Assembly: GCA_963835925.1 (NCBI GenBank)
Contig: CAWIHH010000004.1
Span: forward strand, 14,452-78,451
Direction of reading: 5' to 3'
Source of the DNA: Candidatus Bathyarchaeota archaeon
GTDB lineage: Archaea; Thermoproteota; Bathyarchaeia; 40CM-2-53-6
Length of the DNA: 64,000 bases
A program made the translations under genes and the position numbers. Below, one piece after another: positions 38,487 through 56,922 of the stretch. Every line of letters begins with the position of its first letter. Within the stretch, counting starts at the first letter, position 1. The notes below the pieces were generated by a model. The model searched no databases and was not told the DNA's origin. It worked only from the letters and a program-made list of their open reading frames with translations.

Positions 38487-38504
38487 GTCGGTTGAGGTTA
38501 AGCA

Positions 38505-39668: not shown

Positions 39669-39672
39669 GTGG

Positions 39673-39891
39673 ATGTGTTTGTCAAAGGTAACAGATGAAA
39701 CCGTAACTGTAATCTTCGAAACTGAAAGGCTCACCCAACTAAAAAAAGCCAGAGACCTATTTGCAAGTGATACAGACAATGATATTTCGATAAATGATTT
39801 CCTGGACATGCTCATCAAGACTTACGTCATGTATCGAGACAAGAGAGGCCCCACTGAAAGTTCGTTGCTCAAGAAAATGACTCAGACGTGA
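39673..39891 (+). CDS. small hypothetical protein
   Basis: 72-aa ORF with an ATG start directly after the TrpD-like gene. No recognisable family. Confidence 0.3.
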   Translation: MCLSKVTDETVTVIFETERLTQLKKARDLFASDTDNDISINDFLDMLIKTYVMYRDKRGPTESSLLKKMTQT

Positions 39892-40565
39892 TTACCCTCT
39901 ACATGAAACGATAGAATTAATGTCCTATCGACTACTTTGGTGCTCTTGAGTTTCAACGGTATTGCGTCCGCCTCTTGAAGGAAACCTTCACCATCGACAA
40001 GCGTTGGTGCATCTCTTCCTCCCCAGATGTAAGGTACGACCCAGACAAAGAGTTCGTCCACGAGTCCCTCCTTGAAAAAGCCCCAGCGGGCTTCTCCTCC
40101 ACCTTCAACTAGAACTGAATGTATACCGCGCTTCTTTAGCTCACCCAACAATTCCTTCAAGTCAACACGTTGGGATCCGCGCAATACGAGAACTTCCACC
40201 TTCCTTCGCAGAAGCTTGACCCTGCCTTCAGGGGCATGCTTCGTGACTGCGATTACGGTTGAGGCTTCCCTGCCAAGAATTTTTGATTCCAATGGCGTTC
40301 TCGCTTTACTGTCGAGCACAACTCTGAGAGGGTTTTTTCCTTTCACCTTCCTGACCGTCAGCGAAGGATTATCCGCTATGACAGTATCGACACCTACCAC
40401 GATCGCGTCCACCTTGGATCTGATAGTGTGTAACATCCTTTGATGTCGGGCCGTCATAAATCTTGAAAACTTCCTTCCAACTCGATCAGCGGGCGCTATC
40501 TTACCATCTACGCTCATGAGTCCGCCGACCGTAACCCTAACGTTATCCATTGTGACCAACCTCAC
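39882..40565 (-). CDS. diaminohydroxyphosphoribosylaminopyrimidine reductase (archaeal RibD C-terminal-type)
   Basis: Motifs MSVDGKIA, VDAIVVGVDTVIADNPSLTVR, NPLRVVLDS and VLVEGGG. Confidence 0.75.
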   Translation of the reverse strand: MRLVTMDNVRVTVGGLMSVDGKIAPADRVGRKFSRFMTARHQRMLHTIRSKVDAIVVGVDTVIADNPSLTVRKVKGKNPLRVVLDSKARTPLESKILGREASTVIAVTKHAPEGRVKLLRRKVEVLVLRGSQRVDLKELLGELKKRGIHSVLVEGGGEARWGFFKEGLVDELFVWVVPYIWGGRDAPTLVDGEGFLQEADAIPLKLKSTKVVDRTLILSFHVEGNHV

Positions 40566-40608
40566 CTAACCACACCCATACGAGAAGAGCTTGTTTTAGG
40601 CGTGGAAT

Positions 40609-40860
40609 TTGAACATCGTCGTTAACATGATTTTCTGTATGTGTGGTATTAATGGTGCGCGCATGCTGGAGCCGCATATCCGCAACCCAAACGAAAGTGT
40701 GAAACTGAGAATCTTGGAGCTTGCGCATCAGGGTAGATCTAATGAAGACATTTGCAAGATATTGGACAAGACCTATGACCCCTATCGTCCTTTCGTCTCA
40801 AGAGTCATAGCGGAATATCGAGGAAGAGGGGTACTGACTGCAAAGATCGACACGGAATGA
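40609..40860 (+). CDS. small HTH-like protein
   Basis: VKLRILELAHQGRSNEDICKILDKT is an HTH-like segment. The likely ATG at 40664 lies immediately after a repeat copy. Confidence 0.35.
   Translation: MNIVVNMIFCMCGINGARMLEPHIRNPNESVKLRILELAHQGRSNEDICKILDKTYDPYRPFVSRVIAEYRGRGVLTAKIDTE
40637..40664 (+). repeat. intergenic repeat family copy (short form)
   Basis: tgtatgtgtggtattaatggtgcgcgca. Confidence 0.5.
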
Positions 40861-40962
40861 GTTTTGTAACAACACTTACCCCACCCGGTTGGGCGGATTT
40901 CTTCAACTTAACAACAACTGCATCTTCGAGTATGGCGGTTCGAACGGTCAGAGGTCGATGAC

Positions 40963-41841
40963 TCAGACTTCTGAAGCTTCAAGTGCAACAGTCCGCATTG
41001 TTACGAATTCTGCGCAAGACTTCTTCAGCCTTCGAATTAGGCGGAGAACCTGATCGACTGACCTTTTGCCGCAGTTGTGACTCACGTGAAACGGGACCCG
41101 ATACCCGTCTGGAACGTCGGCTAGTTCCCAAGAGTGCAATTCTATGATGAACGGTTGACCCAGTTTGAATAGCAGGTTTCCTGTCAAGCAGGGAAGTAGC
41201 TCCCCATAATTCTTGCGAAACCACCACCAGCCAACTGGAATTCTGAGAATCGGAAACATTGAAATCGGTAATTCAACTAGCCTCGCATTGGTCTGCTCAA
41301 TGCCCGAGTCCCACATGAAGGGACTCGAAAGTGAAAATATCGGCGAGTACCTGGTCCTAAACCAAGTATCCAACAGCGAACTATCATAGAGATAGCGTGC
41401 TTGCAATAGAGCAGTTATCATGTTCTTTGTGATCGCGAAATACGGTTCCCTGTACCCCTGAGGCGTCACACCTAATGAGTTCTCAAGCGTGCGTGTACTT
41501 CCCAAGATTTTTCTAAGCCATTCATCGCGAGTGCGTTCAGGCGTTCGGCAATGTTCCGTCCCATGGTTCCCAATCTCATGCCCGGCTTTGAGCATCTCAT
41601 GAAGCAGTGGGATGTTGCGTTGAGCAAAATATGTGGTCACGAAGAAAGTGGCATTCACATGCTCTAGATCAAGTAGCTCTAACAACGTTTGCAGGCCTTT
41701 GCGGGCCACTTCGAGCTTGATGGCTTCGGGCAAGGCCGTCACCCGGCTGCGACCAATGTCTTGGGGGATCGTCCATTCCTCCAAGTCGACGGTTATCGCT
41801 ACTTTTCTTGAGAGAACCATAAAATCGCCATCGTGGCGCAA
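40963..41841 (-). CDS. polysaccharide deacetylase (CE4)
   Basis: Motifs ITVDLEEW, ATFFV and GHEIGNHGTEH. Confidence 0.7.
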   Translation of the reverse strand: MRHDGDFMVLSRKVAITVDLEEWTIPQDIGRSRVTALPEAIKLEVARKGLQTLLELLDLEHVNATFFVTTYFAQRNIPLLHEMLKAGHEIGNHGTEHCRTPERTRDEWLRKILGSTRTLENSLGVTPQGYREPYFAITKNMITALLQARYLYDSSLLDTWFRTRYSPIFSLSSPFMWDSGIEQTNARLVELPISMFPILRIPVGWWWFRKNYGELLPCLTGNLLFKLGQPFIIELHSWELADVPDGYRVPFHVSHNCGKRSVDQVLRLIRRLKKSCAEFVTMRTVALEASEV

Positions 41842-42536
41842 AAACGAATGGCAGTAGGAATCACGTGGACTTTCGATCGATCAGTGTGCCGTTCGTGTCG
41901 CTCGACTGGAACTTGCACTATTCTAAGATTGTTTTTTTTAGCTTTTACGAGGAGTTCGATATCGAAGTCGAAACCGTTCGCGGTCAATCCCAGCTCATCA
42001 CAGCTTGTCTTTATGACTGCTTTGAGGCCCTCGTTTGGGTTTGAGATGGGTATCTTGAAAATTCGGGTGAAAAGAGCCTGATACACCGATGAAAATACTT
42101 GTCGGATGGTTGAAGTATGAATGTTCTTTCCCTGGCCGACTACGAGATCTGCAGAACCCGAAAGGATTGGTTCCAGCAATCCTGGTATCTCGAATGGTGA
42201 GTACTGTTGATCCCCATCCATTATTACGAGTATTTCACCGGCTGCGCTTCGGAATCCAGTCCTTATGGCCGCTCCCTTACCCATATGTTTCTCTAGTGCG
42301 GCATACTTGACTGACGAAGAGCGTATTGAATAGTCTTTGATTTGATCTAGTGTTCTGTCGCGGCTTCCGTCGTCAATGAAGATTAGTTCTCGAATGGATT
42401 GGTTTGTGCGCACTAGTCTTTCGAAGGCTTCACAGATTGGTCCTATGCTGCTCTGTTCATCCCTCACAGGAACTATGATTGATGCTTCAAGGCTCAATAT
42501 CGGAATTCCACTCGAACAGTTTTCCTTGACATACAT
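41799..42536 (-). CDS. GT2-family glycosyltransferase (dolichyl-phosphate sugar synthase-like)
   Basis: Motifs SIIVPVRDE, FIDDGSRDRT, GKGAAIRTG and VIMDGDQQY (DxD). Confidence 0.8.
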   Translation of the reverse strand: MYVKENCSSGIPILSLEASIIVPVRDEQSSIGPICEAFERLVRTNQSIRELIFIDDGSRDRTLDQIKDYSIRSSSVKYAALEKHMGKGAAIRTGFRSAAGEILVIMDGDQQYSPFEIPGLLEPILSGSADLVVGQGKNIHTSTIRQVFSSVYQALFTRIFKIPISNPNEGLKAVIKTSCDELGLTANGFDFDIELLVKAKKNNLRIVQVPVERHERHTDRSKVHVIPTAIRFCATMAILWFSQEK

Positions 42537-42552
42537 GCCTCGAAGGACTCCA

Positions 42553-43341
42553 TCACGGAACGACTTTCTTTGTTTTGATTATGAAGTGCGTACCGCGAAT
42601 ATTGGGCAGGCCGTCAAAACTGATTATCATGTCTAAGATTCTTGTGAGCGCCTTGAATAGATTTGTATGAGTAATTTCCTTCATGGACGTGAGGCTCTTT
42701 CGAGTTAGAACTTCGTAGTAGAGCGAGAGGGCAAGATAGTTTTCCAAAGCGGGAACGAGCCATCTTCCGATGAAGAATAGTTCGATGGGAGCGAGGCCCA
42801 ATCGTTTCAGTCTTGGCATAAGATCGGATGGATCGTAGAGTTGTTTTAATCCAGGCGACCAAATCCCAATCTGACGATGGCGAATTCCAATTCGTTCTAA
42901 TAATCGATTCAGCGGATCGTAAATCATGGGATAGTTCTTGTACGGAACTGAGATAGTGCACGTTCCACCATGTTCGAGAATTCTAGCCAGTTCCTTTAGA
43001 GTGCATTCATCGTTCTGCATCATGTTGATCACTTCCATGCAGTAGGCAGTCCGAAACGAACCATCACGGAAAGGCATGTTAGTCGCGGTTGCAGCCACTA
43101 GATCGCAGCGTTCGCGTGCCTGCTTGAGTACCGTTTTAGCGTTTTCCAACTGCTGAAGGTCACTGTCTAATCCAATCACATTGACGCCCTCCATCTTTAG
43201 CGATGCCATTAACTCTCCGCCTCCGCAACCTACGTCCAGAATTAGGCCTCCGGTCGCTATCCGCTTCTCCAGGACGTGTTGTAGTCTTGCTCGGCTTGTC
43301 AGACCGAGCATCTTGACCGTCACGATTTGCGAGGGCACCAA
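42553..43341 (-). CDS. class I SAM-dependent methyltransferase
   Basis: ILDVGCGGGELM is the motif I glycine loop. Confidence 0.7.
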   Translation of the reverse strand: MVPSQIVTVKMLGLTSRARLQHVLEKRIATGGLILDVGCGGGELMASLKMEGVNVIGLDSDLQQLENAKTVLKQARERCDLVAATATNMPFRDGSFRTAYCMEVINMMQNDECTLKELARILEHGGTCTISVPYKNYPMIYDPLNRLLERIGIRHRQIGIWSPGLKQLYDPSDLMPRLKRLGLAPIELFFIGRWLVPALENYLALSLYYEVLTRKSLTSMKEITHTNLFKALTRILDMIISFDGLPNIRGTHFIIKTKKVVP

Positions 43342-43425
43342 ACAAACTCCCTGACCTGAATCTCATCCAAAAGAGCTATGTTCGGACTGGGGGATCCCTG
43401 ATCTGCGTAGAACGCAGATTGAGGC

Positions 43426-45042
43426 ATGCTTCAACCTCTGTTAAGGGGGGATTATTCAACTTGCCCAGCTGCTCGATTCCATGAGGGCATGACGGTAACA
43501 GAGGAATTTTGCCAAAGCTTGTCGGATCTCTTGAAGCGGAACTTTGAGATTCTTATCCTAGTGGTTGCAGCACTAGTCCTGTACCTCTTGTTCATGTCGC
43601 GTTCTTTTGACGAGGTGGATGCCTTCAATTTCGCGCTGGCCCTTACCCGCTACGATGTCTTGGTTCATCAGCCTCATCCGCCGGGATATCCGATTTTTGT
43701 TTTCATTGCGAGTATACCGTACTGGATCACTCGTGATCCGTTGTTCTCTTTGACTTTGGTTAGTTGTGTGAGTGGAGCGTTTACGTTGGTTCCTACTTAT
43801 GCGATTGCGAAACGTCTCTTCAACCGAGAGGTCGCTTTCTTCGCGGCTATGGCGCTAATGGTTGCTCCAGGATTTTGGCTGGTGAGTGAGCAAGCCGTTA
43901 GCGATATGCTCTTTACTCTCTTTCTCACAATTGCGATAAGCCAACTTCTCATTGGCGGCGAATCGAAACTCTATCTCTATTCTTCTTGGGCAATGTTGGG
44001 CATGGCGTTAGGGGTTCGAATTCTGAACTTCGTCTTTTTCATACCATTTCTCTACGAAACGATCAGAGTGACAAAACGTGTGCGTGATGTCTTAGCGTGC
44101 GTACTCATTTGTCTAGGAGTTCTATGCTTGGCTATGTTGCCAGCCGTGTTTTTGACCGGGTACAGTCAATACTTGAATGCTGTTCTTGATCAATTGAGTC
44201 GACATTTGAGAGATGACGTAAACCCGTTCGGGTTATCCGCTCTTGGCCGACTTGTCTTTCTTTTTCTGACTCTAATGAGTGGGCTGGGCGCGACTTTGCC
44301 GTTTCAACTTCTGCGACCCGATCTCTACGTATCAGATTCAATCTTCGCTGGGCTTAACGTCATTTTGATTCTGTTCATGTTCGGAGCTGGGGTGGTGCTT
44401 CTGAGACGTGTCAAGAGGATTTCGAAAGCTTTCTTTCTGATATTGTGGGTGTTTCCATACTTTGGCTATGTCTATCTGCTTGGTGCACCGGGTTACTCGC
44501 GATACCTGCTTCCTGTACTTCCACCTATTTTGATCGTACTGGTCGGCTGCGCGCTTTCTGCTGGTCGTTTCTTTTGTTCATTCATGGGGAGGGGAAAAGA
44601 GGCCGCAACTCATCTGAAAGTGGCGGCTCGATACGCGATGGTCATTCTATTTGTTGCGAGCATGTTTACTTATTCGCTGCCATTGGCGACAGCGCTTCAT
44701 ACGGAGCTGGCTCCCAACGTGCAACTCGTATTATTTGTCCGTTCACACTATGATCCATCAACTACTACAATAATTGTCTTCCATGAACAGAGAGCTTTCC
44801 AGGTGTTCGGATCCGACTTCAGACAAGTTCATTGTTGCGATCAGATTCAGAAAGCAAGGGCTGTAATGGAGAGCAGGTTACGCCTGTCTGACATGGTCCT
44901 GATAACCGATACAGCTCTTGTAGCTTTCCGAAGGCAGGGAATTACGCCAACTGTCGTGCAGATTGCGGTCTTTTCCCGAAGTCCGCTGGTGAAATTCGAA
45001 GATAACACGGTTGTACTTTATAGGGTTGTTACAGTTGGGTAA
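43426..45042 (+). CDS. GT-C fold membrane glycosyltransferase (DUF2723/TMEM260-like)
   Basis: 538 aa with more than 10 TM segments and an early loop DEVDAFNF...HQPHPPGYPIF. Confidence 0.5.
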   Translation: MLQPLLRGDYSTCPAARFHEGMTVTEEFCQSLSDLLKRNFEILILVVAALVLYLLFMSRSFDEVDAFNFALALTRYDVLVHQPHPPGYPIFVFIASIPYWITRDPLFSLTLVSCVSGAFTLVPTYAIAKRLFNREVAFFAAMALMVAPGFWLVSEQAVSDMLFTLFLTIAISQLLIGGESKLYLYSSWAMLGMALGVRILNFVFFIPFLYETIRVTKRVRDVLACVLICLGVLCLAMLPAVFLTGYSQYLNAVLDQLSRHLRDDVNPFGLSALGRLVFLFLTLMSGLGATLPFQLLRPDLYVSDSIFAGLNVILILFMFGAGVVLLRRVKRISKAFFLILWVFPYFGYVYLLGAPGYSRYLLPVLPPILIVLVGCALSAGRFFCSFMGRGKEAATHLKVAARYAMVILFVASMFTYSLPLATALHTELAPNVQLVLFVRSHYDPSTTTIIVFHEQRAFQVFGSDFRQVHCCDQIQKARAVMESRLRLSDMVLITDTALVAFRRQGITPTVVQIAVFSRSPLVKFEDNTVVLYRVVTVG

Positions 45043-46201
45043 CAGATCGAGAGATACATCAAAATCGCCCTGGGGCATGAACTGGACCTCCAAGCCTATT
45101 CGTAACGCCGTTAAATGTGCACTCTTGCTTTGTGTTATCATTCTTCCAGCAACCTTTTCGATGACACGTGTCCTCGCCGATAGCGAATCCCAGCAGTTGC
45201 TGGGCGCGTTCTTCTATCCGTGGTTTGGGCACTACAACCACTGGAATTTATCAAGCCGTCAACCTCCCCTAAGTTGGGCTTCCGAATATCTGCCTTCAGT
45301 CTCCGCACAGACCAATGAACCGGCCAGAGCATTGTACGATAGTAATGATACGGATGTGATACTCTGGCAACTTGGTAAAATGAGGCAGGCCGGCTTGGAT
45401 TTCGCCATATCGTCTTGGTGGGGAAGAAGCACCTACGACGATAAAGTTCTGCAGAAGATAATCTTCGGAGTCATGCCAAGAAATGATAACCCCTACCCCG
45501 ACTTGAGATGGTCAATTGTGTATGAGAAGGTGAGGTTTAGTGACCCTTCGGTTGAGGAGATTGTGCAAGATCTACAGTATCTCAAGGCGACTTTTGGTGG
45601 ATCGAGCAGTATCCTGCGGATCGGTGGAAGAATGGTTCTCTTTGTTGCGGGCGCTCCCGGTAACACTAGCCAATACGTGGACAAATGGAGCGAGGCTGTT
45701 AATCGTGTGGGAGATATCTATCTTGTCTTGAAGGCTTTCGGAGGATACGGGGCGTTTGCGTCAAAGGCTGACGCTTGGTATCAGTTTGCGCCTGGCAATC
45801 GTATGCAATTCGACAGTTACTATTGGGGATACGTATCTCCTGGCTACTGGATGTACAATGAATCGGCTCCCAGATTGGTGAGAAGCCCCACCGAGTTTGC
45901 CAAGGCTCTGCAAACCCTTCGAGAATCAAACGTGCAACTCGTATTGATTGAGACTTGGAATGACTGGAACGAGGGTTCACAGATTGAACCAGGCCGAGAT
46001 ATTGCAAGCGGCAGTGCATATGGCGATACGTACGTAGACTTGGTCCGCCAAGTCATGAAAGAAAACATGCAACCTTCGTCAAATCAAGCTTTGGCAATGC
46101 TTGGGGGAATATTCTCAACCATTGCACTAGTTCTTGTGATGTTTCCAGCTCTTCACAGAAGGAGGAAAAGCGTCGGCGCATCAGATAGAGCTACGCATTA
46201 A
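45011..46201 (+). CDS. secreted GH99/WbsX-like glycoside hydrolase with C-terminal anchor
   Basis: Motifs FFYPWFGHYNHW, ISSWWGR and IETWNDWNEGSQIEPG, with a C-terminal TM segment. The likely start is 45079. Confidence 0.5.
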   Translation: MYFIGLLQLGNRSRDTSKSPWGMNWTSKPIRNAVKCALLLCVIILPATFSMTRVLADSESQQLLGAFFYPWFGHYNHWNLSSRQPPLSWASEYLPSVSAQTNEPARALYDSNDTDVILWQLGKMRQAGLDFAISSWWGRSTYDDKVLQKIIFGVMPRNDNPYPDLRWSIVYEKVRFSDPSVEEIVQDLQYLKATFGGSSSILRIGGRMVLFVAGAPGNTSQYVDKWSEAVNRVGDIYLVLKAFGGYGAFASKADAWYQFAPGNRMQFDSYYWGYVSPGYWMYNESAPRLVRSPTEFAKALQTLRESNVQLVLIETWNDWNEGSQIEPGRDIASGSAYGDTYVDLVRQVMKENMQPSSNQALAMLGGIFSTIALVLVMFPALHRRRKSVGASDRATH

Positions 46202-46341
46202 CTGCTGACTAAGTATCTGCGCCTTCGCACACGTTTTCACGTCGTTTGCGGGGAGCTTCCTATTTGCGCGACGCAAGGATCCTCCGACCGCGCCATCAAA
46301 GAATACTCGGGCTCCGAAACAGAGTCGCGTACTGCACTGCA

Positions 46342-47022
46342 TCAAGTGCTTTCACGGCAGTCTTCTCCTTGAGATTCCTTTTTCACATACGCTTGCAGGA
46401 TTTCTGCTTGGACGATCAATGAAAGGAGTGCCACGCCGAATACCATCGCTTGTATTGTGTCTCTGTAATTGCTTTCTGGGTGAGAGGACTAGTGCGATTG
46501 AGACTGCTCCACGTAGCCCCGCAAAGGCTAGGATCCTTTTCCATGAGGCCGGTATCTTCTCTCCCATTAGTTGAGCGAACCATAGGATTGGGTAGACGCT
46601 GAGGATTCTCGAGATGATTATGGCCGCGAAAGCCACGATTATGAATGGGGCGTAGGCGATCAGCAGCTTGAAGTCGGCTTTCAACCCGATGAGTAGAAAG
46701 GCGAAGGCTGTGGCAAGAAAGGTCACCATCTCCCAAAATTTTATCATCGTTTCACGGGTTTCCTCTGACATGGCTGTTCGCATCGTCCGGTTCCCCATGT
46801 ACAAGACGGCGATGGGTACTGCAATCAGACCTGACACGCCTAGGCTCTCTGCAAGCACGTAGGAACCGTACATGACCGCTATGGTGAAGGATGTTTCCGC
46901 GAGAGGGTCCGTGATCAACTTGTGGAGCAGTTCAGCAACGCCTGACACCAGCAGACCGATTCCAACTCCTCCTAGCAGAGTGACACCGAATTGGCTCAGG
47001 CCGCTTGCGACATTTCATCTGG
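46342..47022 (-). pseudogene. nhaP: Na+/H+ antiporter (NhaP/CPA1) fragment, 5'-truncated and frameshifted
   Basis: Only the C-terminal TM region is present (..LAESLGVSGLIAV..AGLRGAVSIALVLS, then LPESNYRDTIQAMVFGVALLSLIVQ in another frame). An in-frame stop lies at approx. 47022 with no N-terminal half. Confidence 0.6.
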
Positions 47023-47039
47023 CGACATATCGAATCTGT

Positions 47040-47399
47040 TTAGATGATTGAGTTGGATGGATTAATACCTAACCCAGCATTCACCCCTTGACCTATCTCT
47101 AATCTACGCCTCTTATAGAAGTCAACTACCGCTTCATTGATGAATGTACTAAGATCACTATCATACCCACGCTTCCTAGCATAGTCATACAGCAATAACG
47201 GTACTGGATCGATCTTCGCGCTCTTAGTGATAGGTGTTAACTCTAGTTCAACTGATCTACCTAATGGTTGACTAGATAGGATAGTAGATGACAACGATGG
47301 TGCATCTGATGGTTGAGTAGGTATAGTAGATGACAACGATGGTGCATCTGATGGTTGAGTAGGTATAGGGGATGGTATACCTGATGGTTGAGTAGGCAC
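47040..47399 (-). CDS. repeat-containing protein with RHH-like C-terminal domain
   Basis: The N-terminus has Pro/Ser/Thr-rich 14-aa tandem repeats (IPTQPSDAPSLSST). The C-terminus is IDPVPLLLYDYARKRGYDSDLSTFINEAVVDFYKRR. The frame stays open upstream to 47513 without an ATG. Confidence 0.4.
   Translation of the reverse strand: MPTQPSGIPSPIPTQPSDAPSLSSTIPTQPSDAPSLSSTILSSQPLGRSVELELTPITKSAKIDPVPLLLYDYARKRGYDSDLSTFINEAVVDFYKRRRLEIGQGVNAGLGINPSNSII
47261..47397. repeat. tandem repeat, approx. 42-bp unit, 3-4 copies
   Basis: The core ctgatggttgagtagg recurs at 47306, 47348 and 47381, with a variant at 47261. Units 47264-47305 and 47306-47347 are near-identical. Confidence 0.85.
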
Positions 47400-47454
47400 A
47401 TTGCTTGTATCCTGTATTTGAAGCTGAATTTTGGAGCTAGGTTGAGAAGGGGAT

Positions 47455-47485
47455 GATAGGATAGTAGGATAGTAGGATAGTAGGT
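47455..47485. repeat. 8-bp microsatellite (GATAGTAG)n, approx. 3.5 units
   Basis: ataggatagtaggatagtaggatagtagg, read directly. Confidence 0.85.
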
Positions 47486-47488
47486 TGG

Positions 47489-48197
47489 ATGATGGAGTGG
47501 TATTGGGATGCTTTCAGGAATGTTCTGCCTGAATGGTTGGACTTCCAAGGTCGAATGACTTTGAGCTCACCAGAACAATGCGTCTGACCCGTTCAATGCT
47601 GCGTTGAATTATGGGTACGGCTTTCTTGAAGGCGAATGCAGAATGGCGATTAACTGCTGTTGGCTTGGAACCATGCGGTCGGATTTCTGCATGACTTTAG
47701 TGATTACCAGACGAAGCAATCCTTAGCCTATGATCTTGCAGGAACCGTTCAGGTGGATAGTTGACCTATCGGTGATTCAAGCTTTCGAGTCGAAGGTCTT
47801 AGGCTTGCATGATTTCTATTTCACTGGTGATGATTACCGTTACCGGTTCGAGACTGAAGCGAAGCAGCGTTTTATTGATTTGATTCGTGAACGATTCAAC
47901 GCTGGAGTAGGTACAAAGGGTCGAGTTCTGAAATGGGATACGGTGATCGAACAGAAAACTGAAGAGCTAGGCAGATATTTGACAGGAAAATCATCCACGC
48001 TTGACTTCGTCGAACCTGCACCAAGCCTGGAAAGGCAGGATAGCCGAGAGTTGCGATCTAAGATTCTTGCGCTAACTCAATCTCAAGCTAGACAGCTCGG
48101 AATTGGGAAGAGCACGCTCTACTACTTGCGAAGAAATGCAAGAATGCGCCGACCCATCGTGGTCTATAGCAAGCTTCTTGAGAAGTTGGTTCAGTGA
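47489..48197 (+). pseudogene. cas1: Cas1/casposase-like gene remnant with C-terminal HTH; N-terminal domain missing, at least 3 frameshifts or stops
   Basis: YWDAFRNVLPEWLDFQGR, DPFNAALNYGYGFLE, VGFLHDFSDYQTKQSLAYDL and QEPFRWIVD (Cas1 core motifs) lie in three frames. The intact tail 47730-48197 ends with the HTH SQARQLGIGKSTLYYLRRNA. Confidence 0.65.
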
Positions 48198-49941
48198 GTT
48201 GTTTGGCAAGACAATCGGGCGGTATCTCGGCGTTCTAAGCTTTGCAACAGTAGCACTCATACTAAGCCCAAGATATCTCTCTGCTGACTTCAACGCCGCC
48301 ATGGCTAACGATCCGCAGAAATTCATAGAACTCATTGTTGTTTACTACGGATTGCTCTCTATTCCAGTAGCTTGGTCAATATTCCCATCGCTACTGAGGG
48401 TCCCCAAGGCTAGAGGTTACATAGCTACCGCAATATTCTCGGTATTTCTAGTGTCATCCAGAGTTGTCACATATTTTGGACTTGGCAACCCTGAACGCCT
48501 CCTCGACATCCTCGTCGGTGCAATCATACTGTATGTCCTGAGGGAAGTAGTGAGCACTAAGGAAAAAGCACCACTAGGGTCCCCCACACCGGCATTCTTG
48601 GATTTTGGCCAACAATTCGCTTCAGGGTTGGTCTATTTCGGCACAGTGACAGCTGCAGAAGTGATAATCTTATGGTCGACACGGGGAATGCTACCGTATC
48701 CGTATCTAACAGCTGGCATCTGGGCGTCATTGGCGCTGATTTTTGGGTTGCCCATTTTGCGTGTCTATGCTCGTGGTTTTGCTGAGGAGGGGATATCCAT
48801 TCGAAGCTTCTTCGCCTCCATGAAGTCAGCGAAGGAAATGGAAAGATTGGCCGTCATTTCTAATCTGTCAGTGATTGGTGTTCTACTCGCTCACGTCACT
48901 TACGCTTCAAGTGTAGAATTGCATTCAATAATCTACGCTATCGTACTCCTGGGCTTGCCCAGTACCTCATCTCTTCCTACGCTACTGGTGGTGGCTCTCT
49001 ACGCATTGGTATTCGCCTTGCTCATAGCCATGGCAATCACTCCGTTATGGGTTAATTATAGATCTCTTGGGATGAGCGAAGACGATATTCGAAGAATAAT
49101 GGAGAGCAAGACCATCTGGCGGACACCGCTTATTATCCAAGACTTGCTTACGGCTTTGACGTTTGGATTGATCAAGACGGACTTGTTCTTGGTAATCCCC
49201 TTAACGCTCTTTGGAGTCACACCAAACAGATTGCTCTCATTCCCGAATGAAGCCTACATCCTTCTTGTAACCATAATACTGCTGTTCTTCGGTCGCATCT
49301 TGACTACTCTTGCAGGGAGAAGCTTCCCCCTCTACGCCCTAGGCATCGTCATGGCACCTATCAGCATAGTGTTTTCGACTTCTCTCGACTTCTTTCATAC
49401 GGACATCAAAAGACGGCTCCTTCGTCACTACGCTAGACTCCAAGAGCAATTGCCGCTTATCATTGAGCGACTAGAGAAAGCCGCAACAAATGAATACGAT
49501 CTACTCTTGTTGCGACTGATTTCACGGTACGGGCTCTTGGACCAAGAAATCATTGGTGGAAAACACGGGCTTCCTGGGATTAGACCGGTTGACATAGATC
49601 CAGTTGCACGTGTTTTGAATTTGAGCATCAGAGATAGGAAATCCAAGAAATTGGCGCAGATATCCATACCACTTGACGTAGAGACTGCGCACCTTCTAGA
49701 AAGTTGCCTCTCCGGCGTCACTCCAACAAATCGTATTTTCCAAATCTCAAGAATGCAGTTGTGGGCAAGAATCATCCACCTTGCCAAGCGTGCTGCAGAG
49801 AATCCACTTCAGATTACGACGTTTCGATTAAGAGCCCACTTTGTGACATACTGTTCAAAGAATCTACCATCCGATGTAGCAGAGCAGCTGAGGACACGAA
49901 GTGTTACGAATCCGTCTAGCCCTGACACCCATATCCGGTAG
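48103..49941 (+). CDS. polytopic membrane protein with C-terminal degenerate tyrosine-recombinase-like domain
   Basis: About 10-12 TM segments fill the first approx. 440 aa. The last approx. 170 aa resemble an integrase catalytic domain (..IPLDVETAHLLESCL..RIFQISRMQLWARIIHLAKRA..ITTFRLRAHFVTY..) but with substituted catalytic positions. The true start is probably downstream of 48197. Confidence 0.5.
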   Translation: MGRARSTTCEEMQECADPSWSIASFLRSWFSELFGKTIGRYLGVLSFATVALILSPRYLSADFNAAMANDPQKFIELIVVYYGLLSIPVAWSIFPSLLRVPKARGYIATAIFSVFLVSSRVVTYFGLGNPERLLDILVGAIILYVLREVVSTKEKAPLGSPTPAFLDFGQQFASGLVYFGTVTAAEVIILWSTRGMLPYPYLTAGIWASLALIFGLPILRVYARGFAEEGISIRSFFASMKSAKEMERLAVISNLSVIGVLLAHVTYASSVELHSIIYAIVLLGLPSTSSLPTLLVVALYALVFALLIAMAITPLWVNYRSLGMSEDDIRRIMESKTIWRTPLIIQDLLTALTFGLIKTDLFLVIPLTLFGVTPNRLLSFPNEAYILLVTIILLFFGRILTTLAGRSFPLYALGIVMAPISIVFSTSLDFFHTDIKRRLLRHYARLQEQLPLIIERLEKAATNEYDLLLLRLISRYGLLDQEIIGGKHGLPGIRPVDIDPVARVLNLSIRDRKSKKLAQISIPLDVETAHLLESCLSGVTPTNRIFQISRMQLWARIIHLAKRAAENPLQITTFRLRAHFVTYCSKNLPSDVAEQLRTRSVTNPSSPDTHIR

Positions 49942-49990
49942 AGGCTATGCTATTTCCAATACCAATTGCGGTAGTGCTTTCAGGTTTTTT

Positions 49991-50030
49991 GTGTGTGTGG
50001 TATCAGTGGTGCGGGCAACGTAATTTGAAC
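49991..50030 (+). repeat. intergenic repeat family copy (short form)
   Basis: gtgtgtgtggtatcagtggtgcgggcaacgtaatttgaac matches 36 of 40 positions of the copy at 56854-56893. Confidence 0.75.
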
Positions 50031-50294
50031 CCTGGTCCGTGGTCAGAAAATGGTGAATGCGCGCCAGTAAATCACACTTTGAAACTGCCTGCAACACACA
50101 AGGGCAGGTCACAATAGGAACATTACCGAGTGCTGAAATTGATGAACATTGGCAAAAGAAGTCAATTGCGCCCCTCCATGTAGCTTCAGAGTCAGAAGCG
50201 AAAAGGAAGATGAGGTCGTAACGATGGTGCAGCAGCATGCAAAGAACTCGCATCAGAAAGACGTGTCAAGAAGCGACGTTCTCGGCATGATGAA

Positions 50295-50344
50295 GACAGT
50301 TTAGAATTATTCCAAGCTTTCTAAACTGTCAAATCCCTATTTTT
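50295..50344 (+). terminator. 12-bp perfect inverted repeat followed by a T5 run
   Basis: gacagtttagaa (50295-50306) pairs with ttctaaactgtc (50319-50330) across a 12-nt loop. TTTTT lies at 50340-50344. Confidence 0.3.
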
Positions 50345-50468
50345 CAACTCCGATTGGCTTCGAAAAGCTTCGAACGTTTTCAGTAATGTATCGTGTGTTC
50401 AGCATAGTCGGGTGCGCACATACGAACAGTGAATGCATCAACTTCCTAATTGAGGAAGCGCCTGACTT

Positions 50469-50570
50469 GCTGCGAGCTAAGCGAGCAGTTAGAATGTGTG
50501 TGTGAGGCATAGCTGGTGCGAGCACCAGAATTTGAATCGTCGTCGTTCGGTCATTTAGTGTGTGTGCACC
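50469..50570 (+). repeat. intergenic repeat family copy (full form)
   Basis: gctgcgagctaagcgagca ..gtgtgtgtgaggcatagctggtgcgagcaccagaatttgaat, plus a second gtgtgtgtgcacc at 50558-50570. Confidence 0.75.
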
Positions 50571-50623
50571 ATTGATACGGGGATATAGGTAAGATTAGAT
50601 TTTAGACAGGTCACTGTCTTATT

Positions 50624-51385
50624 GTGGTGTTTTACTTGTCATCAACTTGCCCGTCCTGCGGCCAGCCTTTGGCGACGAACGCAAACTTCTGCGCCTCATG
50701 TGGAGTTAGACTAGCTGCTCCGAGTTCAGCGGGTTCATCTGCTTCTATTGCGAATCAATCTTTACGCTCCATTTTCTCGCAATCCGAATATGTAGTCGAA
50801 AAGAATCTGCTCACCAGCGGGGTCGGGCTAGGAAGTATCCGTTCAACTGAGGATACCTTCGAAATCAAAGACAAGAGTGGAAGTCTTCTTGCCAGCGTAA
50901 AGCGTAAGGGATTCGACACAGGAGACGGGTTGCGGGTTTTCATTGTGGAAACTCCAAGCGGCGAACAAGTTGCGGAATTACGCAAAAACGTATTCCAACT
51001 CGGCGACCTAATGAACATGGACGCCTTAAAGGACAAGCCTTCGTATGAAGCGTTTGACTCAACGGGACGATTATTCGCATCAATAAAACATAAACCCTCA
51101 AAACCCGGCGCGAGGTTTTCAGCCGACGTACCCTGCATCATTGATAACAACGGCCAAGAGATTGCGAGATTAGACTACGGTGGCATCATCCTATCAAAGC
51201 AGTGGACACTCAAATCCTCGGACAGCTTAACAATCGCAACCATACGCGCTCAAACAGTGCCGCGAGAAACTTATACTGTGGAAATCGTGAACTTCGCCAC
51301 AGAACCGTACGTTATCCTGCTAACCCTATTCGGAATGATACCAGAATCCACCAATATGCCTCATCATCCTCACATTCACCATTGA
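50624..51385 (+). CDS. zinc-ribbon protein with beta-rich C-terminal domain (possibly LURP-one/scramblase-like)
   Basis: N-terminal CPSCGQPLATNANFCASCG. The remainder has alternating beta-strand-like repeats (FEIKDKSGSLLASVKRK.., FIVETPSGEQVAELRK..). The family call is tentative. Confidence 0.4.
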   Translation: MVFYLSSTCPSCGQPLATNANFCASCGVRLAAPSSAGSSASIANQSLRSIFSQSEYVVEKNLLTSGVGLGSIRSTEDTFEIKDKSGSLLASVKRKGFDTGDGLRVFIVETPSGEQVAELRKNVFQLGDLMNMDALKDKPSYEAFDSTGRLFASIKHKPSKPGARFSADVPCIIDNNGQEIARLDYGGIILSKQWTLKSSDSLTIATIRAQTVPRETYTVEIVNFATEPYVILLTLFGMIPESTNMPHHPHIHH

Positions 51386-51495
51386 CAAGCATTCAATTCA
51401 TTCGTTCGTTTCTTGACGGAGTACGCATCACCACACTCACCATATGACAACGCAGCGAAAACAGCATTCAACCTCACACGTAATGACAAAACCGT

Positions 51496-51570
51496 TTTGC
51501 GAGCGAAGCGAGCACGTCCGTCGGTCGAAAAGTGTGTGTGGGTCTAGTGGTGCCAGCACCTGAATTTGCG
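51496..51570 (+). repeat. intergenic repeat family copy (full form)
   Basis: tttgcgagcgaagcgagca ..gtgtgtgtgggtctagtggtgccagcacctgaatttgcg. Confidence 0.75.
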
Positions 51571-51599
51571 TCGTCTGATCTTGACTCAATGTCTATGCA

Positions 51600-52004
51600 T
51601 TAATGTCTGGATGGTGCGGCCGCCGAGAACCACCATTCAAACGTGGTTCCCACGACTCGGCCTAGGTCACAAACCTCAAGACGTGTGGTCATTTTGGCCC
51701 AAACAACACCGGCGCCATTGAGTGGAACATTAGGAGACGTGAAGATGATTCCTGACAAGGAGAGAGGTGAGAGCTCCCCTTTGACAAGTAGGGGTTCAAA
51801 CTCGAATGGAGATGCTAGTTGCGGCTGAACAAGGCCGCTCCGCGAGATGCGACCTCCTGAGGAACAGTTTTCATCTCTCCGTACCACCAAACCCGAGACA
51901 TCATAACCAAACGCCAAGAAAGCTAGCCCAACACGGCCATGAAAGAGCTTGACGACTTGACCTAGCTTTTGCGTTCTGGAAACTGATCCTTCGTTCATCG
52001 ACAA
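51600..52004 (-). CDS. hypothetical protein
   Basis: 134-aa ORF. A repeat copy lies immediately upstream of its start. No recognisable family. Confidence 0.3.
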   Translation of the reverse strand: MSMNEGSVSRTQKLGQVVKLFHGRVGLAFLAFGYDVSGLVVRRDENCSSGGRISRSGLVQPQLASPFEFEPLLVKGELSPLSLSGIIFTSPNVPLNGAGVVWAKMTTRLEVCDLGRVVGTTFEWWFSAAAPSRH

Positions 52005-52008
52005 GAAA

Positions 52009-52062
52009 GCGTGCGTGCGGTATCAATGGTGCGCGCGCGCACACAATGACGGTGTAAATTCT
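52009..52062 (+). repeat. intergenic repeat family copy (short form, GC-alternating)
   Basis: gcgtgcgtgcggtatcaatggtgcgcgcgcgcacacaatgacggtgtaaattc. Confidence 0.55.
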
Positions 52063-52166
52063 GATGTGCGCACGATGCAATGCACTCACGTTTATTGCGG
52101 GTGTTGCTACGCTAGGGATTCGAGTCTTTTGAAAGCCATAAGCGTGTACAAGAAGGATTAGTGTTT

Positions 52167-53783
52167 TCACAGTTTTGTGCCGCAGTGTGCGCAGAATTCG
52201 TTGCCCGCGGGGTTCTGGGTTCCACAACTTCGACAGTGGACTCCCCCACCTCTTGCACCTTGAGCCGCTTGTGCTGGCCCGGCTGTTCTTCTGCGCCTCG
52301 ACGCGACGAGAGCCGCACCGACTATTAGGATGATGACAGCGAGTATCAGCAAGCTGTTTTGCTGAAGCATACTCATCAGATCACTCACGCCTGACGCGGT
52401 GGAGGTCTGAGTGCTTGAGGATGAGCTCTGCGTCTGTGTCGCCTGGTTGATGATCAAAACCGCGTTGGCCAGGCGGCTTACTCCTCCACCACTGCCAGTA
52501 ATTGCCAATGTGAACGATCCTGTGGGTGCGCTTGCTAGAAGCGTAACGGTAAGTGTTGAAACAAAGTTCGGAGTCGCTGAGGGAACACTGAAGACAATGT
52601 TGACACCGGAAGGTGCCCCCGTCACTGTTAACGAAACCTGCGAGTTGAAACCCTTCAAACCAACAACATTAACCGTGTACGAAACTGTCTGCCCTTGAAG
52701 CACACTCTGGGACGCTGGACTCACATTGATCTGGAAGTCAGGTGCCTGAGTCACAATCAGGGTGACTGGGGCAGAGTGCGATACACCACCTCCAACCCCA
52801 GAAACTGTCAGTGTGAATGTTCCAGGTGATGCTGAAGCAGTTGTGGTGACGCTTAGAGTGGAACTGAAGGGTGGAGTCCCCGACGAGGGAGTGAGGGAGA
52901 CGGACACCCCTGCAGGTGGTGGTGTGGATAAGCTCAAGGCAACGCTCTGTGCCGTGCCCGACACCAAGTTCACCGTCACCCCATAAGTTGCACCGCTACT
53001 CGGAACAACGCTCTGCTGCGGTGGTGAGGCGGATATTGAGAAATCAAACTGTGCCTGCGGCGCAACCGTGAAGCTCTTACTCATTGCATTGTTACTCGTA
53101 TTCGGGTCAAGCCCCACTGGGATCGTCCCGACTCCCCAAGTCAAAGTATGCGTACCAGGTGTTGCAATCCAAGGCGTTTGCGTGCTTACGGTGAAAGGAG
53201 TACCCGTTGGTCCAGGGTAGGTGAGTGACCCACCGCCGCAAGATGCTCCATCGAGCTCGCAAACTGCAGAGAAGCTCTGCGGAAAAGATCCCGGGGAAGT
53301 AAGCGCGGTCATCGCCATACTGAATGTGACCGGGTCACCAACCTTCGGAGCAGAAGGGCTTAGCGAGACAGAAAGAACTGCCCAATCTGTAGCTGGTGTG
53401 GTGCTCCCAACGACCTGAAAGGTTGCCACATTCCCCACCATCTGATGGAAGGTGATCGCCACAAGGGCTTCATATGTTCCAGGGGTGCTTATGCCGGGAG
53501 GGTATACTTCGTAGTCCAATCCGGGTCCTACTTTCATCGGGCTGCTCTGCCAAATGTCCGAAGAAGTGCCAGAGGGGCGAATATGCACCGTGGCAGTTTC
53601 TTGACCGTTCCACTGCTGACTGCCAGTCGCTTCGACCCAGAAAGTAACCATGAACGATTTGCCTACGGGCACAGATGTTGGACTAACAGATACGTGAAGT
53701 TCATCCGCATTTACGGTTCTCGGAACACTGCCCACCGACACGAGCAAAAGGAGCAAAATCACTAGACCGGATCTAGCTCGCAA
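52167..53783 (-). CDS. large surface protein: signal peptide, tandem Ig-like domains, TM anchor, cytoplasmic zinc ribbon
   Basis: The N-terminus is LVILLLLLVSVGSVPRTVNA. Two approx. 100-aa internal repeats begin FDFSISASPPQQS.. and DFQINVSPASQS.. The C-terminal TM is followed by CRSCGTQNPAGNEFCAHCG. Confidence 0.6.
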   Translation of the reverse strand: MRARSGLVILLLLLVSVGSVPRTVNADELHVSVSPTSVPVGKSFMVTFWVEATGSQQWNGQETATVHIRPSGTSSDIWQSSPMKVGPGLDYEVYPPGISTPGTYEALVAITFHQMVGNVATFQVVGSTTPATDWAVLSVSLSPSAPKVGDPVTFSMAMTALTSPGSFPQSFSAVCELDGASCGGGSLTYPGPTGTPFTVSTQTPWIATPGTHTLTWGVGTIPVGLDPNTSNNAMSKSFTVAPQAQFDFSISASPPQQSVVPSSGATYGVTVNLVSGTAQSVALSLSTPPPAGVSVSLTPSSGTPPFSSTLSVTTTASASPGTFTLTVSGVGGGVSHSAPVTLIVTQAPDFQINVSPASQSVLQGQTVSYTVNVVGLKGFNSQVSLTVTGAPSGVNIVFSVPSATPNFVSTLTVTLLASAPTGSFTLAITGSGGGVSRLANAVLIINQATQTQSSSSSTQTSTASGVSDLMSMLQQNSLLILAVIILIVGAALVASRRRRTAGPAQAAQGARGGGVHCRSCGTQNPAGNEFCAHCGTKL

Positions 53784-54021
53784 AATTCCTTTCCCAATTC
53801 TTATTCTCGTGAGTGAGAATTACTGGGTTGCGAAGGCTATTTGACGCTTTGGATGAACGTTCGAGAAATTGAGGCAACTGAAAATCGACACGGGAGAAAT
53901 AAGGCGCTGTTCATTGAAACGCCGACAGACCCATACTCCGAGGTGGTGATGTGCACCAGTTACGCCGCACACACATTTTTGACGAACGACGACTATGAAG
54001 TAAGTCAAGACTGGGAGTCAC

Positions 54022-54150
54022 ATGGCTGAGAAAGTTGCACGCTATCTTCGGATGCCGCGTCCGCCGATCATGAAGTGTTCAAGCTGTGGTAATGACAATA
54101 ATCTCGGAAGCACTAACTGCAGCAAATGTGGCAAACCACTCCAGTACTGA
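54022..54150 (+). CDS. small zinc-ribbon protein (42 aa, below the ORF-track cutoff)
   Basis: Manual translation gives MAEKVARYLRMPRPPIMKCSSCGNDNNLGSTNCSKCGKPLQY*. Confidence 0.4.
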   Translation: MAEKVARYLRMPRPPIMKCSSCGNDNNLGSTNCSKCGKPLQY

Positions 54151-54301
54151 GCCTAACAGTTCAAATCCTACTGCCCGAACAAATTCAAGAGACTAAAATG
54201 ACGCCGAGTGCAGCGGAAAGCTGAGTTTCAGATGTTTTGCAGATTAGGAGTTCTTCCTCTGATTAGGCGTCACCCTGTTCGATTTATCAATTCTTCTTTG
54301 T

Positions 54302-54484
54302 TTACCACGTCTTCTCAACGCGAGATGGACACTTACTTGGGTCACTTGTTCTTGCATCTCTGCATTCCGAGCTTCCAGCGGCGCAGTTTTCTCCAGCGCC
54401 CTCGTCACAAGGGTAATCCTCTAACAGACAATAGTACTTCTTAATCGCATTAACCGTACGAACCGTTTTGCTCATTTCTATCAA
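54302..54484 (-). CDS. small Cys-containing hypothetical protein
   Basis: 60-aa ORF. Weak support only. Confidence 0.2.
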   Translation of the reverse strand: MIEMSKTVRTVNAIKKYYCLLEDYPCDEGAGENCAAGSSECRDARTSDPSKCPSRVEKTW

Positions 54485-54514
54485 CGAAATCTATTGTGTA
54501 CAGTAGTTAAGAAT

Positions 54515-54547
54515 CTGTGTATGGCTGGTGCGCGCACAATAATCTAA
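54515..54547 (+). repeat. intergenic repeat family copy (short form)
   Basis: ctgtgtatggctggtgcgcgcacaataatctaa. Confidence 0.5.
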
Positions 54548-54605
54548 CACACTAATCCCAGACAAACAGGACAACACTAACACGCCACGCGACAAGAAAA
54601 GTCCG

Positions 54606-54672
54606 TTCTGCGAGCGCAGCGAGCACACGCATTTTTGTGTGTGGTATTCATGTTGCGCGCACGCACACTAAA
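54606..54672 (+). repeat. intergenic repeat family copy (full form)
   Basis: ttctgcgagcgcagcgagca ..tttgtgtgtggtattcatgttgcgcgcacgcacactaaac. Confidence 0.75.
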
Positions 54673-54687
54673 CTGGCAGTTCAACTT

Positions 54688-54717
54688 CTGGCGCTTGCGC
54701 CAGTGGTACGTTTTTTT
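54688..54717 (+). terminator. hairpin plus T7 run
   Basis: ctggcgc-tt-gcgccag (54688-54703) is followed by TTTTTTT at 54711-54717, directly downstream of repeat copy 54606-54672. Confidence 0.3.
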
Positions 54718-54828
54718 GTAATGCGATGAGAAAGGGGTAAGATGGCGGGCGAGCTCAAAGCTCCCAAAAACACCCCACTCCTCGTGGGGTATTCTGTAAC
54801 CGAAATACACCCCCCTCCGTGATGGTGG

Positions 54829-54904
54829 TTCTGCGAGCGAAGCGAGCAGCGGTAGAAAGTGTGTGTGCGCACCACCAGACCCACCACCACCAGAAAGTTT
54901 AAAC
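54829..54904 (+). repeat. intergenic repeat family copy (full form, variant 3' half)
   Basis: ttctgcgagcgaagcgagca ..gtgtgtgtgcgcaccaccag..cagaaagtttaaac. Confidence 0.7.
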
Positions 54905-54962
54905 CGCGACTGACGACGATTCAAACCTCGGCTGCAAAAAAAGGGGTCTCATACCTAGCTAA

Positions 54963-55955
54963 ATGGCCGTACGTGCCATTTCGGAAGATGGTCAAGCCTT
55001 GAGTGCAAATCAGCGCTCCCGTAATCTTTCCCGTCGAATCTTTCTCAGTTTAGTTGCCGCTGGCGGAGCATATGTTGTTGCTGATGCGATCCTCAAGGGT
55101 CCGCTCAGCACCTTGTCAACAGGCAAATTCACTGTAAAGCAAGTTACCACCGCTTCGACGGCATCGCTAACAAGCAGTACCAGCACAATCATATCCAAGA
55201 GTACAACGTTGTCCGCTACGTCGCCATCAGAACCCGTAAACATGCTAGTCTTGTACAAGTCAGACTTTGAAACCGGGAGTTTTCAACCTGAAGTGTTCCT
55301 CAATCAAGATCGTATAAACGGAGCAACATGTGACATAGTTACTGACATTGTCAGAGAGAGAAGATATGCTTGCAAATGTACCGTAACAAATCCAACACCA
55401 ATTGTTCCAACAGGTCTGCAATCAAACAAGGCAATGATTAACTTCCTTAATCTGCGGTCGCCGAATCATGCTCCAATCCGCGAAGCGTACTACGCATTCA
55501 GTGTCTATCTTCCATCTACACTGAATGGGCCGTACTGGATTATGCCTTTCCAGATTATGCAGAAAGATTCCTCCACTAGTGACACCGCTGTTTTGGTTGC
55601 TCTCAAGGCACGCAATTTCCCTCAGACGCCCGACGGAGTGCTGAAACTGTATCTTGCATACGACGGTGCCAATTTTCCAGACCAGATAGAACCTTGGCAT
55701 GATTCTGCTCCCTTGGAACTTGGCCGTTGGCATGACTTCATAATGTATTTCCTATGTGACCAGAATGGGCGAGTGATACTCTGGCAAAATGGTGTTTTGA
55801 AGTGTGATGTTTCCTACAATACTACATATTTGAACAACGCTCCGAATCCGTATCCTCTGGCTGGAATGTATCAAGATGAAAGAAATCCTGCGAACTGGTG
55901 TGTTATTGATCGAATAGTAGTAGCTTCGACTCTTGATGCGGCAACAACTTCCTAA
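54963..55955 (+). CDS. Tat-exported concanavalin-like protein (polysaccharide-lyase-like)
   Basis: The twin-arginine signal is SRRIFLSLVAAGGAYVVA. The C-terminal pattern GRWHDFIMYF..GRVILWQNGV is typical of lectin/lyase beta-jelly-rolls. The family call is tentative. Confidence 0.45.
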   Translation: MAVRAISEDGQALSANQRSRNLSRRIFLSLVAAGGAYVVADAILKGPLSTLSTGKFTVKQVTTASTASLTSSTSTIISKSTTLSATSPSEPVNMLVLYKSDFETGSFQPEVFLNQDRINGATCDIVTDIVRERRYACKCTVTNPTPIVPTGLQSNKAMINFLNLRSPNHAPIREAYYAFSVYLPSTLNGPYWIMPFQIMQKDSSTSDTAVLVALKARNFPQTPDGVLKLYLAYDGANFPDQIEPWHDSAPLELGRWHDFIMYFLCDQNGRVILWQNGVLKCDVSYNTTYLNNAPNPYPLAGMYQDERNPANWCVIDRIVVASTLDAATTS

Positions 55956-55997
55956 ATGAACTGGTTCGTTTCAAGGTGGTGATACTGCTGGTGGTGC

Positions 55998-56036
55998 TTC
56001 AAATTGACGGTTCAAATTGCGATGCTCGCACCAGTA
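55998..56036 (-). repeat. intergenic repeat family copy, inverted orientation, partial
   Basis: ttcaaattgcgatgctcgcaccagta is the reverse complement of tactggtgcgagcatcgcaatttgaa. An extra ttcaaattg lies just upstream. Confidence 0.6.
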
Positions 56037-56113
56037 CCTTGTTTTGGAGACCGCTTCCTCTGTGGGTTTGGTGATCTCCAAACAAGCTGACTCTGCTTTT
56101 GTCTCGTCTCCTT

Positions 56114-56710: not shown

Positions 56711-56815
56711 GAGCTTAGCCTCGGCTATGCTACATCAATTCCTATGTAGCCTACTTATCAAGTGCTCGTTGCACATTATCTGGGCCTTGTGCTCTATGCC
56801 ATATTTACTCGTCCG

Positions 56816-56918
56816 GCGATGAGAAAGGAGTTTCTGCGAGCGTAGCGAGCATTCGTGTGTGTGGTACTACTGGTGCGAGCAACGTAATTTGAACTGATGT
56901 TCTTTGTGTGTGGTGCTC
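56816..56918 (+). repeat. intergenic repeat family copy (full form)
   Basis: gcgatgagaaaggag-tttctgcgagcgtagcgagca-ttc-gtgtgtgtggtactactggtgcgagcaacgtaatttgaac, plus a second tgtgtgtggtgctcg at 56904-56918. Confidence 0.8.
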
Positions 56919-56922
56919 GTTA

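Follow-up and report, generated by a model that had tools for sequence, protein, structure and literature searches.

A 5'-truncated cas1-like gene in a soil or peat archaeon is very probably a casposase remnant from polymerase-less casposons of Bathyarchaeia

A stretch of 64,000 nucleotides from a Candidatus Bathyarchaeota archaeon (GenBank assembly GCA_963835925.1, contig CAWIHH010000004.1, positions 14,452 to 78,451), hereafter called the window, was analyzed. It belongs to the 2.35-Mb genome, 73% complete, of a soil or peat archaeon. Around a broken cas1-like gene the following features were found; all coordinates count from the first letter of the window.

37716-56920: island in which about a dozen junction motifs separate cargo genes
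40609-40857, + strand: remnant of a helix-turn-helix (HTH) gene, 83 aa, with 71% identity to the HTH at the C-terminus of a related element's core ATPase gene
46352-47020, - strand: 5'-truncated, frameshifted Na+/H+ exchanger gene
47021-47496, - strand: 475-bp segment found at three genomic places, directly adjoining the antiporter and the casposase, which are both cut
47494-48197, + strand: probable casposase remnant, the 3' 60% of a family-2-type gene, with the Cas1 catalytic helical domain and a C-terminal HTH
47690-47692 and 47742-47744, + strand: surviving catalytic codons for His (H232 of the M. mazei casposase) and Glu (E247)
48045-48143, + strand: three-helix HTH of the casposase C-terminus, from the 6OPM alignment, the AF2 model and an Atlas lead
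48103-49941, + strand: cargo ORF of up to 612 aa with a membrane-type N-terminal part, co-oriented with the casposase and overlapping or following its stop
49991-49999, - strand: (CA)n terminal tip of the element holding the remnant
50000-50013, - strand: 14-bp motif of the target-site-duplication type, CGCACCA-N5-AC
50014-50030, - strand: leader of an 8-bp spacer and TCAAAT, with the same spacing as in the casposase target of A. boonei
50509-51574, + strand: gene cassette of 1.07 kb coding for a 253-aa zinc-ribbon protein, bounded by junction motifs, with a 98.6% duplicate at C4:641000-642070
50565-50592, + strand: junction with a (TG)n tip just upstream and the 14-bp motif at 50565-50578, followed by GGGGATATAG

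Three Cas1 motifs, DPFNAALNYGYG, VGFLHDF and YDLQEPFRW, were located on the + strand, spread over three frames as described in an earlier sequence-only reading, and the tail of the remnant can be read without interruption between 47730 and the stop at 48197. The first piece matches Pfam Cas_Cas1 with an E-value of 4.5e-5. Breaks were mapped by DNA alignment of the remnant with three intact or near-intact relatives. Homology to an intact copy starts only at about 47494 (its residue 165-171), and the beta domain of the N-terminus is indeed missing. The EG motif with the first catalytic Glu (M. mazei E162) was lost together with this 5' part and, hence, the statement that all core motifs are present was wrong. 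The catalytic triad E162/H232/E247 is thus incomplete in the window copy, whereas the intact paralogs possess all three residues; judged from its sequence, the window copy cannot act as an integrase any more. The C-terminal HTH, also proposed before, aligned with the C-terminal region of the M. mazei casposase structure 6OPM, and an AF2 model of the remnant contained helices at residues 106-114, 117-122 and 127-138 with a pLDDT of ~90 over residues 111-140. Atlas features pointed to HTH families with scores of ≤0.85, taken as a lead only, although Pfam, including its HTH models, gave no HTH score for the tail.

Four net breaks, each a single-base insertion (+1), lie near 47566, 47655, 47673 and 47737, accompanied by a compensating -1/+1 pair near 47910-47920. 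Of the earlier description as decayed, the part concerning the 5' truncation stands, this being a clear lesion; the frameshifts are doubtful, and decay and assembly error have about equal chances. If sequencing or assembly errors caused the frameshifts, for which we see an even chance, the true DNA would contain an in-frame 5'-truncated ORF of ~212 aa that keeps His, Glu and HTH and was either cut recently or retained to regulate the target sites by DNA binding. Errors have to be considered because the protein departs from the family at only 1 of 108 conserved columns (intact homologs: 3.4 on average) and contains no nonsense codons. Furthermore, all four net breaks are +1 and mostly outside homopolymers, 6 of 43 orthologs in the same genome, including the cellular PolB, are read in more than one frame, and the relative L075 has an open ORF of 212 aa cut at almost the same codon. 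However, the duplicated segments flanking the gene are free of internal indels over ~1.5 kb when compared to their copies, and four breaks within 175 nt are far above the genome background. A selected short form is opposed by the truncation points of the relatives, which scatter from residue 102 to 372 and are better explained by random erosion. The question qualifies the word decayed; the identity as a casposase is unaffected.

Near codon 815, the cellular PolB gene (G000:C4:425874) is frameshifted relative to an ortholog of 78% identity, pointing to indel errors of the assembly. Additionally, broken casposase copies in this genome and in relatives overwhelmingly retain the 3' end with the HTH and have lost the 5' end, with cuts between residues 102 and 372. 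Cargo genes begin within a few bases of the cas1 stop; selection on cargo would be the simplest reading of this 3' bias.

A broken gene alone would be of little importance; the importance lies in its family. The PDB search with the remnant tail returned the M. mazei casposase (6OPM) as best match with an E-value of 1e-25 from the catalytic tail through the HTH, and CRISPR Cas1 structures gave no match. At least 11 casposase copies of two clades are present in the genome, five of them intact (~400 aa; two of these lie at C4:134734-135975 and C1:329404-330612), and the earlier term solo was therefore misleading. Two intact paralogs matched 6OPM over the full length with E-values of 7.5e-74 and 3.4e-93, the best CRISPR Cas1 reaching 1.7e-25 and 2.9e-30; both clades match 6OPM end to end, far above any CRISPR Cas1. 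A quick tree of 64 rows was calculated with the remnant entered as a read-through carrying X at each break. It placed the remnant among HTH-bearing Cas1s, within a 24-row clade (SH-aLRT 99) which holds the Cas1s of duplication-bounded elements, and separated it by a branch of SH-aLRT 100 from 11 CRISPR Cas1s, several with Cas2 alongside; the tree holds no named reference casposase, and the link to family 2 comes from HMM and fold scores to 6OPM. The closest Cas1 relatives are Bathyarchaeia records plus one in Nitrososphaerales. The earlier reading had taken the HTH as a hallmark of casposases, described as known from Thaumarchaeota; it marks family 2, whereas the family-1 enzymes of Thaumarchaeota lack it (PMC4046053, PMC8464041). 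No relative was found among viral contigs, and plasmids yielded CRISPR Cas1s near 30% identity and nothing closer.

The relatives carry the database label 'CRISPR-associated Cas1', and the intact paralogs pass the cut-off of TIGR00287. An orphaned cas1 gene of CRISPR adaptation nevertheless has a negligible probability: all subtype models stayed below cut-off, the C-terminal HTH is present, and neither Cas2 nor an exact-repeat CRISPR array was found in the 73% complete genome, extending the earlier failure to see either. The separation from CRISPR Cas1 in the tree and the element context of the relatives also refute it. The 6OPM match, the branch of SH-aLRT 100 and a casposon-type end 1.8 kb downstream agree with the earlier view that the gene is a casposase remnant and not a CRISPR adaptation gene. 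Very probably, a polymerase-less casposon of Bathyarchaeia, related to family 2, once carried the full casposase gene, of which the 3' part has survived.

The downstream end at 49991-50030 is the sole end found for the window element. The flanks were searched from 30 to 62 kb for the left end by terminal inverted repeats (TIRs) and target-site duplications, as suggested in the earlier reading; a left end with a matching 14-mer was not found in that range. The site at 40659 was rejected as left end, as 2 of 14 positions differ and the facing side has no tip.

More than 100 related repeat sites, first seen downstream of the remnant, occur in the genome, clustered in islands. The consensus comprises GTTCAAAT, a fixed spacer, CGCACCA-N5-AC and then CACACAC. 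The target of the A. boonei casposase has TCAAATC 8 bp before a 14-bp duplication (PMC6614799), and the duplication of the M. mazei casposon comprises 14 bp beginning with CGCA (PMC4779613). When tested for a family-2 target, i.e., a TCAAAT leader 8 bp before a duplication starting with CGCA/CC, both positions 50000-50030 of the window and the genome-wide consensus showed this arrangement; the anatomy of the candidate sites is equal to the published family-2 target determinants. Elements were found at real tRNA 3' ends or at tRNA-end mimics, with duplications 8 bp behind the TCAAAT leader. Only 1 of 44 mimics has a fully paired T-stem, and the casposase determinants are kept; having lost T-stem pairing, the mimics are therefore DNA sites and not tRNAs.

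The element ends are short inverted repeats with microsatellite tips, (CA)n, (CCG)n or (CGA)n. Among relatives, which are not independent samples, eight right junctions had an identical partner 14-mer at the left junction (null mean 0.88; reached in 0 of 2000 shuffles), and the tip type of paired junctions agreed at both ends. Within the genome alone, the pairing of duplications was not significant (2 vs. 1.08, P 0.30). The strict junction pattern was detected in 5 of 151 genomes of the class, all with the same Cas1 clade or fragments of it, and was not found in the other 146; junctions were enriched near the genome's own Cas1 copies (7/14 vs. 1.7, P ~0.001). Furthermore, an inward-facing target lies 39-56 bp inside 14 of 119 left and 5 of 32 right tips as compared to 0.2% by chance, and both ends of a 16.2-kb element on C1 carry empty inward-facing targets.

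Nine tyrosine integrases are encoded in the genome, several directly behind tRNAs and upstream of islands, and the motif resembles a tRNA 3' end. The repeats could thus be att sites of tRNA-targeting tyrosine integrases with Cas1 as mere cargo, which we regard as highly improbable. Inverted tips and a fixed 14-bp duplication mark the ends of the elements, which contain Cas1 and no integrase, the mimics have given up T-stem pairing and retained the casposase determinants, and the junction pattern was not found in the 146 class genomes mentioned above. At G000:C4:969073-969184 (- strand), a tRNA precedes the N-terminal stub of a tyrosine integrase, to which a truncated casposase is joined; elements of two kinds occupy this site.

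Several further arrangements were noted at these sites. The same 14-bp motif is followed by ends that start with GGGG, as the TIRs of classical casposons do, at 50579 of the window and at G000:C4:642000, 960879 and 172778, C5:270365 and L060:10574. Ends of a third type, CAC-TATGAAAA, were seen at C4:672203 and C5:922. Two to three units of 50-60 bp, each with tip, linker and target, stand in a row at G000:C3:118439-118604, C6:30985-31089 and L095:4013-4118 and resemble miniature repeat-spacer arrays. A 1.66-kb cassette at a junction is present as a 99.9% duplicate (G000:C1:315190-316845 and C6:29255-30910), resulting from very recent movement or an assembly duplicate.

Complete casposons of the relatives are evident from their sequences: they measure 7-11 kb, encode a Cas1 with HTH and are flanked by identical 14-bp duplications. 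L083, with 9014 bp and a TIR of ~65 bp, is cleanly inserted into the 3' end of a tRNA, and tandem arrays with three identical 14-mers were found in L075 and L094. Likewise, two elements of 16-17 kb stand in tandem on C1 of the own genome, where three near-identical 14-mers delimit them and both encode an intact casposase. A PolB had been expected; it is absent from the gene lists of the complete elements and from the window, all PolB matches in the five carrier genomes lie outside elements, and Pfam detected no PolB beside six distant casposase representatives. These elements do not include the polymerase.

It is improbable that the remnant stems from an ordinary family-2 casposon with PolB that has lost its polymerase half by deletion. 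The full-length likeness to 6OPM would agree with such an ancestor, as would the GGGGATATAG end at 50579, a match to the terminal sequence of the M. mazei casposon TIR, and a protein-primed PolB remnant that lies 10 kb away from a casposase copy belonging to the other clade. However, the complete elements of the nearest intact relatives hold no PolB and have no room for one, and the protein-primed PolB remnant lies elsewhere on the contig, behind a cobalt-transport operon and near the more distant A/B clade. It is the only protein-primed PolB in the genome (C4:956660-957331), ~900 kb from the window copy. This polymerase remnant (G000:C4:955970-957448; L012:5968-7380, - strand) has an IS6 transposase and a junction as neighbors, a GGGGTATTAAC end coming after the junction, and the A/B-clade casposase 10 kb away lies behind a tRNA; it possibly stems from a second, protein-primed-PolB-type element using the same target.

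Instead of PolB, most of the complete elements contain three to four small conserved genes, and about a dozen loci have a module in common consisting of a small HTH protein, a basic protein of 120-150 aa, a protein of 110-125 aa and an ATPase of 265-300 aa; the primase/ATPase module is missing in the complete elements L082 and L094. Viral primase-linked and MCM-like AAA+ proteins are similar to the ATPase. Invariant DxD, GxH and DD motifs were identified in 11 sequences of the 110-125-aa protein, which gave weak primase matches (Pfam AEP-TOTE, E 0.032; Foldseek LigD Pol, E 0.012) and a VIA Z of 5.7 to AsfvPrimPol, with HUH and ferredoxin-like folds close behind. The assignment as a putative primase is somewhat favored. 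Of the HNH nuclease and the two HTH genes in the core of family 2, small HTH genes recur in the elements, whereas HNH was called in one locus only (L097); the cargo includes OLD-like, SIR2, TIR and transporter genes. Defence-like cargo was seen as a SIR2 and ATPase pair, an OLD-like TOPRIM and a TIR-domain gene coupled to cas1 (L119:2546-4850; L118:6590-7744; L096:11217-11981). Distant HTH-casposases lie beside genes of 866-930 aa without Pfam match (L124:4875-7475; P0132 locus), and other replication modules may exist there.

In the window, junction motifs of the island were found at about 37740, 40659, 50013, 50520, 50565, 51554, 52033, 53952, 54657, 54868 and 56877, and the 83-aa HTH remnant begins at such a motif (40646-40659, - strand). 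The 98.6% identity of the zinc-ribbon cassette with its duplicate suggests recent movement of enzyme-less units. The cargo ORF at 48103-49941 gave no family match. Copies of the 475-bp segment are located at C4:674397-674881 (96%) and C4:353857-354226 (88%); the segment holds tandem repeats of 33-42 bp and an ORF of 119 aa (47040-47399). A short motif is common to the three copies (47021-47496; C4:674397-675277; C4:353769-354622) ~20 bp outside the left edge, and this segment with its small ORF may be a separate small mobile element. Regarding the other neighbors named earlier, the truncated host gene was confirmed as the Na+/H+ exchanger, the supposed RHH gene had no support from Pfam or PDB, and the integrase-like domain none from Pfam, PDB or an HMM of the genome's own nine tyrosine integrases.

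By homology to the enzymes of A. boonei and M. mazei, an intact casposase would attach the ends of the element to the 14-bp site, one at each border, and the site would then be duplicated by gap repair. The small protein and the ATPase might act as primase and helicase and let host polymerases copy the element. Because ~12-16% of the ends carry their own inward-facing target, new elements would land in old ones and build nested islands; deletions would erode these to enzyme-less cassettes, moved in trans. In the window, a rearrangement probably joined the repeated 475-bp segment to codon ~165 and removed the beta domain and one catalytic Glu. The right end and the cargo gene would thus remain of this element, its left end being lost.

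The elements resemble family 2 casposons, i.e., the M. mazei elements (6OPM) and AciBoo-C1 of Aciduliprofundum boonei, by a Cas1 with C-terminal HTH and, in intact paralogs, the E/H/E triad, by the CGCA-starting 14-bp duplication with the TCAAAT leader 8 bp upstream at tRNA 3' ends, and by tandem insertion at one site and solo ends. They differ in lacking PolB and a regular HNH, with the putative primase and AAA+ ATPase module instead, in their microsatellite-tipped ends, some with tRNA-end mimics inside, in the number of junctions (~100) and casposase copies (at least 11) within a single genome, and in the Bathyarchaeia host. Although working like family 2, they are not filed as members because they do not encode a PolB. 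Family 1 casposons of Thaumarchaeota (NitAR1-C1) share the Cas1-type integrase, TIRs and a short duplication; their compact casposase lacks the HTH, they encode a protein-primed PolB and mostly target the ef-2 gene (PMC4046053, PMC8464041, PMC6563490), whereas the elements described here have the HTH and no such polymerase. The CRISPR Cas1-Cas2 adaptation module is similar in fold, chemistry and the leader-repeat-insert-repeat layout in tandem arrays; in contrast, Cas2, short spacers and effector genes are missing here, and the inserts are 1-17 kb long with ends of their own. In integrons and Tn7-type hotspots, variable gene cassettes accumulate between recurrent recombination sites. Cassettes build up here as well, but the enzyme is Cas1 and the sites are duplicated targets with inverted tips, not attC hairpins. 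The analogy of casposons to Tn7 has also been drawn before (PMC4779613).

Published casposons are defined by Cas1 and PolB (PMC4046053, PMC9966878); hence, an abundant lineage without PolB would escape the usual screen, and in databases it is mislabelled as CRISPR Cas1. In the literature searched, which comprised open-access and not subscription papers, no paper on Bathyarchaeia casposons or PolB-less casposons was found. We tentatively propose that the remnant might derive from an undescribed casposon family in which PolB is replaced by a primase-helicase module, the own target is carried inside the ends, and intact casposases build polarized leader-repeat-insert-repeat cassette arrays in trans. 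The tandem arrays and ~100 natural target sites per genome provide a ready test set for target choice by casposases, useful also for the role of the HTH, which is unresolved (PMC6977970), and bearing on the idea that CRISPR repeats originated from casposon targets. An enzyme inserting 7-17 kb at a defined tRNA-end site would be of interest as an integration tool. If the proposal is true, the family would be a present-day counterpart of the step proposed to lie between casposons and CRISPR arrays, integron-like in action.
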